64,000 nucleotides of DNA, taken from a virus. Positions 24,074 to 50,720 of the stretch are shown here, piece after piece. Position 1 is the first letter of the stretch. The number at the start of each line of letters is the position of its first letter. Both the position numbers and the translations under genes were made by a program. The DNA lies in the IMG/VR virus record IMGVR_UViG_3300032331_003094, positions 1-64,000 of that record. One strand, given 5' to 3'. The notes beneath the pieces were generated by a model. The model had not been told where the DNA came from and searched no databases. It was given only the letters and a program-made list of their open reading frames with translations.

Positions 24074-26954
24074 TCAAACGATGCCGTCATCTTGGATGAA
24101 GCTAAAGCCGGTGGTAACGAAATCTTTGTTCAGGATTTCAAAACCAGCGTACAATTGCCAAATCAGGATGATGAAGCGGCTGAAGTCATCGTTGTTGTTG
24201 ATCAACACCTGGGCGTTAGGACCGCCGATGCCGACGCCGATGGCTTGGGGACCGAAGAAGTAACCTTGAGCAACTTCTTGGGTGGAGTAGTTGGAACCAC
24301 CGTCAAAAGATGCACTCAGGGTCTTGGTGGGGAAGTTGGTCGATTCGAAGAACTTCACACCTTCAAACTGCACGCCGGTAGGCATAACAGGTTCACCAGC
24401 CAGGAAATAACCTTGGCCAGCTTGGGGACCCATGTAGAAGCTGGAGTTGTTGGGCATCGCAGGGTTGCCCATGTACATCCCCTGACCGGGATTACCAGCG
24501 TAACGAGCGATCTCACGGAAGTCAGGATCACGCCGCAGGTGCAGCATGAAAGTAGGATCGCAGATGCAACGATACAGACCATCGGAATAGGTCGGCACGT
24601 TACGCTTGCGCAAGTCTTTAACAACGTTCAGTAAGTCAGTACGGACTTGGAACTGTTGAACTTGAGCACCATATTCAGTGGAAGTGTAGGAAACACGACC
24701 GGAAGAATCTTTAGCTTTGTTACCAGCGAAGTAGTAACCACCTTGGGTGGTAGAAGCTTGGCCATTGGCTTCAGCTTTGGACAGTTCGTCAATGAAGACG
24801 CGGTCACGCCACCGACGATAGTCATCCAGCAGGGTGAGGCTACCGATGGACTGGTGGAACATATTCAGGTTACCGGTATCCAGCAGCAGACGCTGGGCGG
24901 TAATCAGGGTTTCACGAGCAATCTTGAAGGTCGAAGGCTGGGTCGGATCGCCCGGGTCCGCAGGACCGGTGTATTCCTTAAGCACCACCAGGACTTTCTC
25001 CTTGGTGATGTTACGGCTATTGGCGGTACCGATGGTTTGGTCGGCAATACGCTCGCGGCTATCCTTCGTACCAGGGGTTCCCCAGAACTTGTACAGGTGT
25101 TATCCCAAAGGCTCTTTATCCTTTGGTTCTTACGGTTTATCATCCCGTAAGTTCAGACTATATCATCAAACAATTACTGATTGTTTGTCCTGCGCTCGTG
25201 CCCTCTTATCGTCTTCATCTGCAAAAGCAATGTTAAGACTCGCTGCGTATGTTTCAGAATTTTTAGTTCTGTTTTTATAACGCAGGGTCACTTTATTTTG
25301 TAACGTTGAGTGCATGTGGGGCTTTAGTAACGTTACAAAATCAGGCATCTCTCCACTTAATATTCTTAAACGATAGTGCGCTCTATCTAAATAGAGTTTT
25401 GGATTTACGTTGGCAATATCATGAATCCAAGAGGCAATTATTTTTGCTTCTTGTTCCATGCAGTAAGTAGCAAGTAGGCCAACATTGTTGGAACTAACCA
25501 CGCAACCGTCATCCATCCAAAAAACAGCTAACGCTTCCAGTCCTAAATCACATAAGTAATCTTTGGAAAAAAGTTTTTTACCTTTTGGATAAAACTGTTC
25601 CCTCAATGGAACCAGTAATTTACTGGTAACCATAGACTGGCAAGAATAATAAGTTTTCAAGGTGCGCTTATCGTAAACCTCTCTTGAATTTACTTTTCCG
25701 TTTGTACCAAGTTCTTGATTAATTTTGGTCATTTTCCACTCTAAAAACTGTTTTTGTTTTTGAGAGTGTGTAAAAGATAAGTAACAAGTGTTCTTACCTT
25801 TTGGATAACCTAAACACCCGTCGCCAAGAGTACAGGCTTTGGAAAAGGAGAGGCTCACTGTGTGACCAAGGGTAGTCGTTGGACCTTCCGACCATTTCTG
25901 GGCGGCTTGGCTGCTGATTGCCCAATGCTAACGCATCGAAGGGTTTCCAGCAATTCACAGGATTTAAAGACCGCTACAAACTCAACGGTCTAATTGAACG
26001 GTTTGACCAGGCTGGCGGGTGAAGTCGTGGACAACCACGGGCTCTACTGCCATTTCGGCAATGTAGGCGGGGTGGGGACGATAGAGTTCCGCACCCAAGA
26101 TTTTTGGAAAATCGTTCTCCTGGTCTCTAGTTTCTTAGAGGGGTGGACTATCTCTTCATCCCTGTGGGATGCCGGACGCTAAATCTGGTATTACGTAACA
26201 AGTGCGTGTTACACCCAGTAGTCTCTGCACGTTCCAATCACGGTCTTGATTGGCTTCGCTCAGGATTACCCTCGGCTTTACGTTAGGGCTTCCCTGAATT
26301 CATCCGGTTTGCACTCATCAATTGCTCGATGAGGTGACAACGTTGAGCGTTCAGTTGAGGCATGCTATGCTTTGGAAAAATGTTGATAAACAACATGGAA
26401 CCAAAACTTGTACCTGGGTTTGGTAACCTTTACTTAACGGAAGACGGTCGAGCTTTCAAGAAGAAACTTAATGAACAGGATCAAGAAGAACTTGAAGAAC
26501 TTCCTATTAGTTCGACCAGTGTTTATGACAGGGTTTCAGTTCTTGTAGATGGAAGAAAGAAACGCTTTCACTTACACGTGTTAATGGCAATTGCTTTTCT
26601 TGGGTTAGACCTAAGAGCCCATGGCAATCATAATTTTTCTCTTCAGGTAAATCATTTAGATAACAACAAGCGAAATAATCGACTTGATAATCTGGAAATC
26701 GTTACCAAACAAGAGAACTTAACGAAGGCTTGGGAATCTGGTTGTTACCAAAATAATGGTTTTGCCAGTAAAGGGAAACCGAAGAAGTCTTTAAGAAAGT
26801 TTTCTTCGGAAGACGTGATGCAAATTAAAGCTTTGAAGGAGGCTGGGCTTTCATATCGAAAGATTGCCGAAAAGTTCAACTGCAATCACGGAGCTATTTA
26901 CCAAATCCTAAAAGGGCATACCTACCAGGATCTGAACTAGCTATCAATAAACAC
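24074..26954 (-). CDS. Major capsid protein, three exons: 26954-26943, 26116-25985, 25093-24074 (387 aa)
   Basis: GGAGG SD plus GTG; splicing gives in-frame MFID|NDFPKILGAELYRPHPAY...GQTVQLDR|YKFWGTPG...; follows the scaffold gene. Confidence 0.9.
25094..25984 (-). mobile_element. Group I intron 2 in the capsid gene (891 nt)
   Basis: 5' exon ends in U (GACCGU) pairing with IGS GCGGUC; UUGUA pairs with 3' exon UACAA (P10); core AAUUGCUGGAAA, AAUCAGCAG, AACGACUA, GAUAUAGUC; ends in G. Confidence 0.92.
25166..25858 (-). CDS. Intron-encoded two-motif LAGLIDADG homing endonuclease
   Basis: ACTLGDGCL and LAVFWMDDG; lies between the two P7 strands (L8). Confidence 0.88.
   Translation of the reverse strand: MSLSFSKACTLGDGCLGYPKGKNTCYLSFTHSQKQKQFLEWKMTKINQELGTNGKVNSREVYDKRTLKTYYSCQSMVTSKLLVPLREQFYPKGKKLFSKDYLCDLGLEALAVFWMDDGCVVSSNNVGLLATYCMEQEAKIIASWIHDIANVNPKLYLDRAHYRLRILSGEMPDFVTLLKPHMHSTLQNKVTLRYKNRTKNSETYAASLNIAFADEDDKRARAQDKQSVIV
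26343..26371 (+). promoter_or_regulatory. Promoter for the antisense HNH gene inside intron 1
   Basis: TTGAGC-17 nt-TATGCT with an extended -10 TG; ATG 23 nt downstream. Confidence 0.55.
26395..26940 (+). CDS. HNH homing endonuclease with C-terminal HTH, antisense within intron 1
   Basis: HLHVLMAIAF...VNHLDNNKRNNRLDNLEIVT..EN; GLSYRKIAEKFNCNHGAIYQI. Confidence 0.88.
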   Translation: MEPKLVPGFGNLYLTEDGRAFKKKLNEQDQEELEELPISSTSVYDRVSVLVDGRKKRFHLHVLMAIAFLGLDLRAHGNHNFSLQVNHLDNNKRNNRLDNLEIVTKQENLTKAWESGCYQNNGFASKGKPKKSLRKFSSEDVMQIKALKEAGLSYRKIAEKFNCNHGAIYQILKGHTYQDLN

Positions 26955-27061
26955 TTTGGTTTATCCTCCAGTGTCTTGTTTTTATTCGGGTGAAAGAACG
27001 GACCGAAGTCCTTTCTTATCTAAAATTTTAGCAGTTGATAATTTATGTGTGAATACATACT

Positions 27062-27107: not shown

Positions 27108-28130
27108 TCACTCCATTACAAACAGTTTGTTTGCAACGGTTCCGGGTTGAGCTTGATTCAGAACACGCCAGGCGTTCTGGGGATCACGGTTCATCACTTC
27201 ACTGAAACTACCCCAGAAGTTTTCGGGTTGCTGGGGGCCAGCAGCGTTGGGGGGAGCCGGAAGATTGGCAATACCACCATTGATGGGCTGAGTGCGATAA
27301 CCACGGGATTCGAGGTCGGCTTCGCTTTCGTACACGGGGTACGGACCTTCAGGACCAAAGAAACGCAGCGTGTAATCGCTGAGAACATCAGGATTGGTCA
27401 GGATTTCGTTATAAGCCAGATTCTCTTGGTGCTCATTGACCGAGAAGCTGGCAAAACGTGCCATCACATCATTGGCTTGGGTGCCCCAGGCCACTGCGCT
27501 ATCCAGCATCCCTTCAAGTTGAAGGGCGTAATTATTTAGAATTGCCGGAGCTTCTACCCCGAACGCGTCGAACACCTGACGGCTTTCGTTGCTCAGGTTG
27601 TAGTAATCCGCGATTGCCCGGTCCGTTGCCAGGGCTTGCTCCTCCGACGAAAGCGTCGAAGAGGTTTGGGAATAGCTGGGAGAGTATGCCGGGTTGAGAT
27701 ATGAGGTCGGCATCCCCGATTGTTGCGTAGCTGGGGCGCTTGGAGTCCCAAAGTTGGCCGGGGCGTACTGAGGAGTCGTCGTCGACGGTTGACCCTGGAA
27801 GGGGGATTGGACTGGTGAGCTCAGCAGGCCCACTACCTTGTTGAACGCCGATTCCCAAGGGTTGCTCACTGGTGCTTCCGCTGGCGCCGCCACCGAATAG
27901 TTCGGTTGGGATTGGGGGGCGTACTGAATAGGGGCGGATTGGTAGCTGGTAGTCGCTTGAGGTATCGCTTGGGGGTAGCTGGTACCCACCTGATACGCCA
28001 CCGGAGCCGCCTGCTGGTAGCTCGGGGCTGGTGCTGCCACTGGTGCCGGAGCTGCCATCACGTAGCTGCTGGGTGCTACTGACGGTGCTTGGCTCGTCTG
28101 TGGGGTCGATTGGACGGTAGCGTCCTGCAT
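27108..28130 (-). CDS. Putative capsid scaffolding protein
   Basis: P/Q/A-rich N-terminus, position between portal and capsid, AAGGAG SD. Confidence 0.7.
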   Translation of the reverse strand: MQDATVQSTPQTSQAPSVAPSSYVMAAPAPVAAPAPSYQQAAPVAYQVGTSYPQAIPQATTSYQSAPIQYAPQSQPNYSVAAPAEAPVSNPWESAFNKVVGLLSSPVQSPFQGQPSTTTPQYAPANFGTPSAPATQQSGMPTSYLNPAYSPSYSQTSSTLSSEEQALATDRAIADYYNLSNESRQVFDAFGVEAPAILNNYALQLEGMLDSAVAWGTQANDVMARFASFSVNEHQENLAYNEILTNPDVLSDYTLRFFGPEGPYPVYESEADLESRGYRTQPINGGIANLPAPPNAAGPQQPENFWGSFSEVMNRDPQNAWRVLNQAQPGTVANKLFVME

Positions 28131-29880
28131 AACTCATCTCCTTTTGTAATGCTTCTAAGGTTCGATACAGATAGGGTGTAAGGTCCAGCCTTGGATCTGC
28201 AGCCATCGGAAGATCCGGTGACTCTGGGTGGGGGGTCTGCATCATTCCACCCACCAGGCGAGCAAACTGCGAGAACGCATTCTGCAATTCGCCTACCATC
28301 CTGAACGGGAAACCGCTTAACATAGCGGCTCGTTCTTCATCCGTCTTAGACGGAAATAAGAACTTCAGTGCTTCAATGCTATCAACACCTAATTCTTGTA
28401 GGTTTCTTACAACGATAGAGTTGTTTAAAACGTCTTGAGTTGACTCTTCATAAACAGGTCCAGTCCAACGCCACAAGACGGTTAAGTCCCCATCGGGAAT
28501 AAGGCCTGTTACTCCGGGGGGAATAATTTTTGTCTGCATGCAGGCCATCATGATTTGCTTGACCCTTTCGTCAAAACCAATCATTGCTTGCTTGTACAAA
28601 TCATTTTCTTCTGGCGGTGCATCTTCTGGCGGTTCAATTGGTTCTTCCAGGCCGGATGCTTTGGCTAAGGTTGCGCGGAACAAACGTTCCTCTTGGAAAA
28701 TAATTAACTCAAGACAACGTGCAATACCGTAAGAATAAATGGCAGTTGCTTTTTTCTTTGCTGTGGCTGATACACGACCAAATAATGATTTGTATTCAGT
28801 TGCAGTTACGCCAGCTGAAATGGATAGTTCATCGACACCACCAAGAGCTGTACGAATCTCTTCTCGAAATTGGCGAGCAAATGCGTTTTGATCACCAGTG
28901 ATAGCATCTGGAACAATGTAACCAACACGGTCGTTTGGCTCCAGGTTTGCAATAACGCGTGGTACACGAATCTGACCATCGATTCCGCGACCGATTGGAT
29001 CTTGTTTAAATGTTGACCTACTTAAAGAAGACAAGCTGCCAAACCCTGAGTTGGCTGCAATCGATGGACGTTGAACTGTAGTGTCTGCCCCGGACTCCAT
29101 AAGGTCTGTTTTGGGACGAGATGAAAGAAGGGTTGGATTACCAAAGAACTGAACGTTTTTGCGCATGGTGCGAACCAATTCGTCGTGCACGACGATGTGG
29201 CTGGCCATGGCGTCAAATTCGCCAGTACCTTCAGTTGAAAACCCTTTGGGGTTGTTAAAGATTTCAACGCAAGGAATAAAGCCCAAGCTGTTTTTAAATG
29301 TTTTGGTTTTACCAAGGGCTGTATAGTTTGGTAAATCAAACGACATCTCACTTTCCGAGTGAGTTTCTTCAATGGTACGTCGTTTAATTGAAAGCCTAAT
29401 AAAACGTTTGGCGCCTTGGCTGCCAAGTGTTGCAGTCCCGGTAAGATTGGAAACATTTACATTGTCACCAAAGCCATTACCTTGTTTGACTTTATAGCTG
29501 TAGATGATTACAACTTCATCTAACTCACCATCTACGTTGTAGTAGCTGCGATATTCGTGACTACGGAAGTAATACAGGCGGTAATTTGATTTGGTTGGAC
29601 GAATATAAAAAATGCCTTTGCCGTCACATAGGAAATAATCCCAGATTGAATCCAGGCGCACATCAAGTTGGTTATATTTGATTACACGGTCGAGAAAGTC
29701 TTTGCGCTGGTTGCCAAAGTTATCTTGAGTTGGAAAAAATTCCACACCTTGACGAATCCCAAACATTTTCATTTGGGAAAGATGTGACCCCACAATCATG
29801 GTGTCAACATGAGAACTAGGATCTTTCTCGACTGCCGCGTCGATAATTTCTTTTAAACGCGCCTTGGTATCAACAGCCAT
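27532..29880 (-). CDS. Portal protein (frame extends 599 nt into the scaffold gene)
   Basis: Size, position between terminase and scaffold, LGFIPCVEIFNNP..G.GEF motif. Confidence 0.75.
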   Translation of the reverse strand: MAVDTKARLKEIIDAAVEKDPSSHVDTMIVGSHLSQMKMFGIRQGVEFFPTQDNFGNQRKDFLDRVIKYNQLDVRLDSIWDYFLCDGKGIFYIRPTKSNYRLYYFRSHEYRSYYNVDGELDEVVIIYSYKVKQGNGFGDNVNVSNLTGTATLGSQGAKRFIRLSIKRRTIEETHSESEMSFDLPNYTALGKTKTFKNSLGFIPCVEIFNNPKGFSTEGTGEFDAMASHIVVHDELVRTMRKNVQFFGNPTLLSSRPKTDLMESGADTTVQRPSIAANSGFGSLSSLSRSTFKQDPIGRGIDGQIRVPRVIANLEPNDRVGYIVPDAITGDQNAFARQFREEIRTALGGVDELSISAGVTATEYKSLFGRVSATAKKKATAIYSYGIARCLELIIFQEERLFRATLAKASGLEEPIEPPEDAPPEENDLYKQAMIGFDERVKQIMMACMQTKIIPPGVTGLIPDGDLTVLWRWTGPVYEESTQDVLNNSIVVRNLQELGVDSIEALKFLFPSKTDEERAAMLSGFPFRMVGELQNAFSQFARLVGGMMQTPHPESPDLPMAADPRLDLTPYLYRTLEALQKEMSYAGRYRPIDPTDEPSTVSSTQQLRDGSSGTSGSTSPELPAGGSGGVSGGYQLPPSDTSSDYQLPIRPYSVRPPIPTELFGGGASGSTSEQPLGIGVQQGSGPAELTSPIPLPGSTVDDDSSVRPGQLWDSKRPSYATIGDADLISQPGILSQLFPNLFDAFVGGASPGNGPGNRGLLQPEQRKPSGVRRVRGRSSGNSK

Positions 29881-50435: not shown

Positions 50436-50654
50436 ATGACTGACTACACTGATGAGCAACTACTTGCTATGGCCATGGCCAATCTTGGTGAGTACATTCA
50501 TGACAACTCACCGCATTACGTTTTAATGCAAAATGATCCTCGCAACGAGGATGACTACGATAGTTGGCAGTACGGAATGGAAGTATTGCCTCATGATCAC
50601 ACTTGGCAACACACATCTATTGATGTGAGTGTAAGTCCAAGTGAGCCCGAGTAG
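50436..50654 (+). CDS. Hypothetical protein
   Basis: 72-aa ORF; its stop lies inside the tRNA. Confidence 0.5.
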   Translation: MTDYTDEQLLAMAMANLGEYIHDNSPHYVLMQNDPRNEDDYDSWQYGMEVLPHDHTWQHTSIDVSVSPSEPE

Positions 50655-50720
50655 CCCAGCGGAAGAGGCAAACGACTTAAAATCGTTCCAGCGTGAGTTC
50701 GAATCTCACCTCGGGTACCA
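50645..50720 (+). tRNA. trnL: tRNA-Leu (anticodon UAA) with a short variable loop
   Basis: GCCCGAG/CTCGGGT acceptor, AACGA-CTTAAAA-TCGTT, GTGAG-TTCGAAT-CTCAC, A73, encoded CCA; 76 nt. Confidence 0.9.

Follow-up and report, generated by a model that had tools for sequence, protein, structure and literature searches.

The 64,000-nucleotide (nt) stretch of DNA analysed here (the window; positions 1 to 64,000 of IMG/VR virus record IMGVR_UViG_3300032331_003094) comes from an S-EIV1-like freshwater cyanophage with a complete 82-kb genome, and on its minus strand lies a major capsid gene that is divided into three exons by two group I introns. Very probably these are two independent mobile introns, each spliced out by its own ribozyme and spread by its own endonuclease. 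The gene structure is recovered uninterrupted in relatives, both ribozyme folds are backed by covariation, each intron contains an intact endonuclease open reading frame (ORF), and the introns are polymorphic in their presence among close relatives; from these observations we infer splicing, endonuclease activity and homing.

The virus record is complete at 82,212 bp, with direct terminal repeats, and the window is part of it. In the phage collection, Synechococcus phage S-EIVl (S-EIV1), from an arctic lake, is its only cultured relative. This phage has an uninterrupted capsid ORF of 383 amino acids (aa) with a GTG start (L001 3857–5008), and the protein begins MFIDTDFPKILG. A tblastn search with this ORF places its residues 49–383 at 25093–24077 and its residues 4–48 at 26119–25985 of the window, colinear and on the minus strand. 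The exon boundaries were set by the uninterrupted homologues, and the coding parts of the gene are organized as follows.

26964..26969, minus strand: Shine-Dalgarno sequence GGAGGA, 9 nt 5′ of the capsid GTG and base-for-base the same in S-EIVl and other relatives.
26943..26954, minus strand: exon 1, GTG TTT ATT GAT (MFID), 12 nt; its last U is the 5′ splice site U.
25985..26116, minus strand: exon 2, 132 nt, residues 5–48, with 3′ end GAC CGU; 42 of 45 residues are those of S-EIVl.
24074..25093, minus strand: exon 3, 1017 nt plus stop, residues 49–387; 85% protein identity to S-EIVl over 339 aa.

Removal of both introns restores the uninterrupted frame of the homologues: 26954–26943, 26116–25985 and 25093–24074 joined give 1164 nt, or 387 codons with no internal stops, and the 387-aa product is identical to the uninterrupted L003 protein at 374 of 386 positions (97%). 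The four codons of exon 1 are identical or near-identical in intronless genes (at the DNA level, in S-EIVl and many metagenomic relatives) and are kept in 15 alleles that carry intron 1. An original prediction, made from the letters alone, had proposed the 12- and 132-nt exons, the in-frame 387-aa product and their coordinates, all of which are correct; alignment to intronless capsid homologues, which it had put forward as a check, was run, and in alleles that naturally have no intron the joints fall exactly where the junctions had been predicted. It also anticipated that gene callers would truncate the protein to 304 aa, and an ORF of this length, from GTG 24988, is present in the ORF list and is what they would report.

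The annotation of the gene is confused elsewhere as well. The S-EIVl record (KJ410740.1; L001 3782–5008) has no entry for the 383-aa capsid ORF itself; there, an opposite-strand coding sequence (AHV82227.1) covers its first two thirds and AHV82228.1 corresponds to the last 156 codons only; the opposite-strand gene annotated over the capsid ORF is spurious. Public protein collections contain dozens of ‘proteins’ of 30–200 aa that are pieces of the same capsid protein, and these pieces end near residues 31, 37–41, 48–54 and 88–93, which are intron sites.

The product of the joined exons is a major capsid protein, as the original prediction had it, with a modelled HK97 fold. It matches PHROG 1357 (‘major head protein’) with an E value of 5e-16, whereas a Pfam search of the protein gave no match; a profile of 35 diverse homologues searched against the Protein Data Bank matched capsid proteins only, with weak matches. 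An AlphaFold (AF2) model built on the homologue alignment has a pLDDT of 79.7 and a pTM of 0.80 (the single-sequence model has a pLDDT of 31), and its top Foldseek matches are the capsids of cyanophages P-SCSP1u and Pan3 and of Ralstonia phage GP4 (E ~1e-12), with HK97 also listed.

Intron 1 follows the fourth codon of the gene, and its boundaries and predicted structural elements are these.

26117..26942, minus strand: intron 1, group I, 826 nt, with boundaries taken from intronless alleles; its last base, 26117, is G.
26932..26946, minus strand: 5′ strand of P1, made up of UGAU from the exon and AGC from the intron, and 5′ arm of the P1 extension, GUUCAG; these pair with 26341–26335 and 26354–26349, respectively.
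26335..26354, minus strand: 3′ arm of the P1 extension, CUGAAC, and internal guide CGUU GUCA, predicted to form P10 with exon 2 AACG and P1 with exon 1 UGAU.
26117..26334, minus strand: ribozyme core with P2 (GNRA loop), P3, P4, P5, P6/6a, P7, P7.1, P8, P9 and the terminal G.
26395..26940, plus strand: gene for an HNH homing endonuclease of 181 aa (counted from the conserved ATG), antisense to the intron and located in the terminal loop of the P1 extension.

The first in-frame codons of the intron are AGC TAG, such that the second codon after the 5′ splice site is a stop. An insert of 824–826 nt occupies the same site in 11 relatives in which both ends are measurable, and a short version of 256–276 nt, without an endonuclease gene, is found there in the IMG/VR contigs L019, L034 and L075. 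Rfam model RF00028 matches 26367–26124 over its full length (positions 1–253) with 88.2 bits (E 3.6e-21), above the gathering score of 50, but the local ‘P1’ in this alignment is mostly mismatched. The true P1 could be recognized because the endonuclease-less relatives close the P1 hairpin directly: in L019, L034 and L075, UGAU plus AGC pairs with GUU-GUCA, with a U•G at the splice site, followed by an internal loop, the 6-bp GUUCAG/CUGAAC helix and a loop of 10–28 nt. In the window the two arms of the extension are at 26937–26932 and 26354–26349, with 577 nt between them. The guide region (26335–26354) is invariant in 13 relatives, and the U•G at the 5′ splice site is present in the intron 1 alleles of relatives too.

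Over 13 distinct copies of the core, 98.6% of the cells in its 60 pairs are paired, and nine pairs change on both sides, compared with 4.5 ± 1.2 in column shuffles (0 of 500 reached nine) and no more than one in slid controls. The minimum free energy fold of the short L075 intron gives the expected helices including the P1 hairpin (z = −3.5). At the base of P5 (26289/26268) a G•U is replaced in some relatives by A·C, which is not a standard pair.

These comparisons also bear on a different arrangement, in which the capsid protein starts at ATG 26396 and is interrupted by a short intron of ~270 nt, the HNH gene is free-standing and divergently oriented upstream, and 26954–26943 is the leftover of an old start. 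The Rfam match does begin at 26367, and 26396–26370 (minus strand) is loosely like the exon 1/exon 2 junction. We nonetheless give this arrangement almost no credence, as the HNH-less relatives keep GTG TTT ATT GAT directly on the P1 hairpin without the 26396 ATG, the local P1 that it would use is the mismatched one of the Rfam alignment, its splice site would follow a C, and its product would be without the conserved Asp4; the resemblance to the junction is itself not significant, with 8 to 201 of 300 shuffles scoring equally.

An operator of the I-TevI style, i.e. a homing-site mimic placed before the HNH gene, was considered and is similarly unsupported, with matches equalled by 8 to 201 of 300 shuffles and sites that shift among relatives. 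Two segments on the minus strand (26693–26708 and 26370–26396) loosely resemble the exon 1/exon 2 junction that is the homing site; the resemblance is weak and unstable among relatives.

The mobile, independently spliced intron 1 that we favor would owe its spread to the HNH gene, which probably begins at 26395 because the methionine of the motif M(E/D/N)P(K/T)LVPGFG is its only conserved start methionine; the longest ORF starts at 26362. The reading frame is intact in all 11 relatives examined, each with the M(E/D/N)P(K/T)LV start. The predicted protein matches Pfam HNH_3 with 31.7 bits, above the cut-off of 24.8, and PHROG 59 (HNH endonuclease) with an E value of 7.5e-28. The closest solved protein is I-HmuI, a nicking endonuclease (1U3E; residues 43–176, almost full length, E 1.8e-4), and the layout is of the I-HmuI type, with an HNH domain and a C-terminal helix-turn-helix. 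The TAG stop codon of the HNH gene (26938–26940) shares the palindrome CTAG with the in-frame stop on the capsid strand (GAT AGC TAG, spliced after GAT). No stop-free ‘mirror’ frame runs along the capsid strand across the antisense HNH gene, and the longest minus-strand ORFs there are of 46 and 37 aa.

Intron 2 separates exons 2 and 3 and has its endonuclease ORF on the same strand, within the ribozyme core.

25094..25984, minus strand: intron 2, group I, 891 nt; its last base, 25094, is G, and intronless alleles join 25985 to 25093.
25873..25990, minus strand: 5′ half of the predicted ribozyme with P1, P10 guide, P3 5′ strand, P4, P5, P6/6a (GAAA loop) and P7 5′ strand, placed by a partial Rfam match and covariation.
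25166..25858, minus strand: sense-strand ORF for a LAGLIDADG homing endonuclease of 230 aa, with a GTG start and two LAGLIDADG motifs.
25094..25194, minus strand: 3′ half of the predicted ribozyme with P3′ (CGCAGGA), P8, P7 3′ strand (UAGUC), P9, P9.1 and the terminal G.

Five relatives (L034, L075, L202, L275 and L316) have an insert of 890–891 nt at this site. P1 is formed by GACCGU/GCGGUC, with a U•G at the splice site that is invariant in 9 of 9 relatives, and the guide UUUGUA pairs with UACAAG of exon 3 (P10); in L087 and L110 the P10 guide varies together with the downstream exon. Over nine full-length aligned copies, 97.2% of the cells in 59 pairs are paired, with two-sided changes in 16 pairs, compared with 5.4 ± 1.7 in shuffles (0 of 500). 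For P3, which closes across a 690-nt ORF, L207 and L110 have two-sided changes in three of the seven pairs. A P3′ at ~25825, as aligned by Rfam, was dropped, since covariation places P3′ as CGCAGGA at 25194–25188. P7 never varies in either core and is uninformative for covariation. In P5a (25932/25919) some relatives have A·C, not a standard pair, in place of G•U.

The LAGLIDADG ORF is located between P7 and P3′, beginning in the P7.1 hairpin and overlapping P3′ and P8 with its 3′ end. It matches Pfam LAGLIDADG_2 over residues 11–174 with 78.7 bits (cut-off 25), with the motifs LGDGCL and FWMDDGC in one chain, as well as PHROG 11023, and the ORF is intact in all eight relatives examined.

Both introns have the hallmarks of group I, with the U at the end of the 5′ exon paired with a G in P1 and a G as the last intron base, and both have an apparently IA-like architecture; in intron 1 a hairpin is predicted between P7 and P3′. 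A hairpin in this position is the usual layout of subgroup IA. The original prediction had described two group I introns obeying this U and G rule, with P1/P10 guides and P7 cores; all of these elements are present, and compensatory changes in relatives add support for the P3–P9 cores. Thus its anatomy stands, whereas it had missed the two endonuclease genes and the antisense orientation of the one in intron 1.

Presence and absence of the introns were surveyed in the 80 IMG/VR contigs that are closest in exon 3, 78 of which are informative in that they include the start of exon 2. Both introns are absent from 58 of these 78 relatives. Intron 1 is present in 20 (13 with the HNH gene, three without it, and four cut by the contig end), and intron 2 in two, each time alongside a short intron 1. 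The combination in the window, a long intron 1 together with intron 2, occurs in none of the 80 contigs. A motif scan identified ~90 further contigs with intron 1 at the same site, given which the arrangement is viable, and DNA metagenome contigs of public runs contain intronless joints at exactly the predicted positions. The intact mobility genes, together with presence and absence among near-identical phages, form a pattern characteristic of selfish mobile elements. Among 75 intronless alleles, 73 have CGC as the last codon of exon 2, whereas every intron-2 allele examined has CGT (an Arg codon; base 25985); this T is the splice-site U of the U•G pair, which fits either co-conversion at homing or selection for splicing.

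Several observations count against two spliced and mobile introns. P1 of intron 1 has just four exon base pairs and must close across ~570 nt. The RF00028 match to intron 2 (25994–25714, 39.4 bits, E 5e-8) covers the 5′ half only and is below the gathering score of 50; this is because the 690-nt ORF between P7 and P3′ splits the core, and intron 2 is accordingly assigned to group I on structural evidence. The C-terminal helix-turn-helix of the HNH protein matches HTH_38 with 26.2 bits, just below the cut-off of 27, and a search limited to sigma-70-type sites found no sigma-70-like promoter on the plus strand before 26395. Finally, a metatranscriptome contig, X16, contains one joint that removes exactly 26117–26942 and connects exon 1 to exon 2, which fits splicing but could equally represent an intronless relative or DNA in the library. 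The contigs of the public runs stem from different samples, such that neither differences between RNA and DNA depth nor uncovered segments of the region were taken as evidence. A backward joint in X16, from 26378 to 26115, of the kind expected for an intron circle or tandem copy, was rejected as an alignment artefact, as L048 and L054 hold the variant at its normal place.

One could ask whether the gene is dead, with inserts that are mobile elements in decay and a genome that is defective or misassembled and makes no full-length capsid protein; the source is after all a metagenome assembly. We regard this as highly improbable, since the genome is complete and has terminal repeats, every core helix is intact in the window, the helices have undergone compensatory evolution, the exons are strongly conserved (93–97%), and the same architecture recurs in many independent samples.

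The live gene with two mobile introns would be expressed as follows. It would be transcribed into a single pre-mRNA in which each ribozyme folds, its internal guide pairing with the end of the upstream exon (P1) and with the beginning of the downstream exon (P10). By two transesterifications the exons, of 12, 132 and 1017 nt, would then be connected into an mRNA that encodes the 387-aa HK97-fold coat protein. Unspliced RNA would yield only MFIDS followed by a stop, so that capsid production would depend on both splicing events. An early in-frame stop is the usual way in which such introns keep ribosomes out of the ribozyme. Here the four-codon exon 1 puts the splice site inside the footprint of the initiating ribosome. 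Intron 1 would be spread by its antisense I-HmuI-like HNH enzyme and intron 2 by its sense-strand, double-motif LAGLIDADG enzyme: in mixed infections these enzymes would cut or nick intronless capsid alleles, and repair would copy the intron along with a little of the flanking exon.

The dependence on splicing had led the original prediction to propose a timing checkpoint, i.e. that the introns have been co-opted for regulation and the rate of splicing times or throttles capsid synthesis. An exon 1 of only 12 nt with AGC TAG in frame after the splice site would suit such a role, as would the fact that the capsid protein is the most abundant late product, and translation and the folding of introns are known to disturb each other in T4 (review PMC2988022). 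However, 58 of the 78 close relatives, or about three quarters, make the same capsid protein with neither of them, and all intermediate combinations occur; the life cycle therefore requires neither intron. The mobility genes, intact in both introns, explain their presence by themselves, and no regulatory element was found in the analysis. A checkpoint is thus unsupported, and we consider it improbable; the two introns look like selfish DNA instead.

More distant relatives of the lineage have three to five candidate introns per capsid gene. In L135 (3446–6664) five RF00028 matches, of which three exceed the gathering score, separate one capsid exon block from the next; L134 (9480–12897) has four matches above gathering and a further gap of 1.1 kb; L147 has three matches, and L316 has two together with a copy of intron 2. 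Candidate insertion positions in the lineage number at least eight (after approximately residues 4, 31, 41, 48, 54, 88–91, 108, 144 and 282). The intron at the residue-88 site of L135 has a 3′ end 93% identical to that of intron 2, and this intron 2-like copy suggests movement between sites. A broader proposal is that the capsid gene of S-EIV1-like freshwater cyanophages is a group I intron battleground, with at least eight positions and up to five ribozyme matches per gene, where the introns and their endonucleases would serve in competition between co-infecting phages, or where the intron load, through the splice site in the initiation footprint, would tune capsid timing and yield; we think this unlikely, if somewhat less so than a checkpoint.

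What the lineage provides is a natural series, consisting of genes with no intron, with intron 1 without an endonuclease gene, with intron 1 containing one, and with both introns. This series lends itself to work on the invasion of introns by endonuclease genes and on the spread of introns through a late gene that is essential and highly expressed. The case also matters for annotation, as automatic gene calling would report a 304-aa fragment and the gene is routinely fragmented in protein libraries. The two introns in the window are ordinary group I introns, mobile independently of each other, in a late gene that is essential, and they leave the understanding of the group I intron mechanism unchanged; the four-codon first exon, with its splice site in the initiation footprint, is a curiosity.

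The position of the gene in the genome is the one expected of an HK97-fold major capsid gene, after portal and scaffold genes, and two genes lie just upstream of it.

27532..29880: portal-like gene.
27108..28130: low-complexity gene encoding 340 aa.

The best promoter-like site of the region, at 27025–27053 on the minus strand (TTCACA, 17 nt, TG-TAAAAT; 10 of 12 positions), is ~70 nt 5′ of the capsid start and between the 340-aa gene and the capsid gene; the number of such sites in the region is not above that in shuffles. A tRNA gene (RF00005, 57.3 bits) is located elsewhere in the window, at 50645–50717 on the plus strand.

Several known systems share parts of this organization. As in the mobile introns of T4, an endonuclease ORF in a peripheral loop ends over core helices (here the LAGLIDADG ORF over P3′ and P8), but the T4 intron ORFs are of the GIY-YIG or HNH type, reside in nucleotide-metabolism genes and are all on the sense strand. 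The DNA polymerase intron of Bacillus phages SPO1 and SP82, with I-HmuI, resembles intron 1 in being a group I intron that encodes an HNH enzyme with a C-terminal helix-turn-helix. There the endonuclease gene is on the sense strand and the interrupted gene is that of a DNA polymerase. By contrast, the window HNH gene is antisense and in the P1 loop, and its host gene is that of the capsid.

A close parallel is mycobacteriophage LittleE, which has an 819-bp group I-type intron in its capsid gene with an endonuclease ORF on the bottom strand. Its sister phages lack this intron, and RT-PCR together with N-terminal sequencing of the protein through the junction demonstrated its splicing (Pope et al. 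2013, PMC3706429). The window has a capsid-gene group I intron of similar size, likewise with an antisense endonuclease ORF, but it has two introns rather than one, the intron 1 enzyme is of the HNH type whereas that of LittleE is LAGLIDADG-like, the first insertion is four codons from the start, and host and phage lineage differ. The same paper mentions, by citation, that the lactococcal phage Tuc2009 has an intron in its capsid gene. For Staphylococcus phage Twort, three group I introns in one gene, orf142, are reported, with exon skipping (Landthaler and Shub 1999), which is similar in that several group I introns of the self-splicing kind occur in one phage protein gene, although gene and phage differ. 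The rarity implied by the original prediction, which placed phage group I introns mostly in DNA-metabolism genes, was therefore overstated in view of LittleE and Twort.

Endonuclease genes opposite to the ribozyme strand, as in intron 1, are also known in the nuclear rDNA group I introns of Didymium, which contain antisense His-Cys box endonuclease genes requiring transcription of their own (PMC9548176). These differ from the window in that they are in eukaryotic rDNA, encode another endonuclease family, involve spliceosomal introns and polyadenylation, and have the insertion in P9.2 and not in P1. Jumbo gut phages carry a mean of 18.5 introns per genome, including in terL. Capsid-gene introns, antisense endonuclease genes and multi-intron genes have thus all been published. 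A literature search on S-EIV1 and introns returned no paper describing capsid-gene introns in the lineage, and the literature searched contained no parallel for a backwards I-HmuI-like gene in a P1 loop or for a 12-nt first exon. Relative to these systems, what is new is the four-codon first exon, and also that the S-EIV1-like lineage is a hotspot for introns, its capsid genes having as many as five ribozyme matches each.

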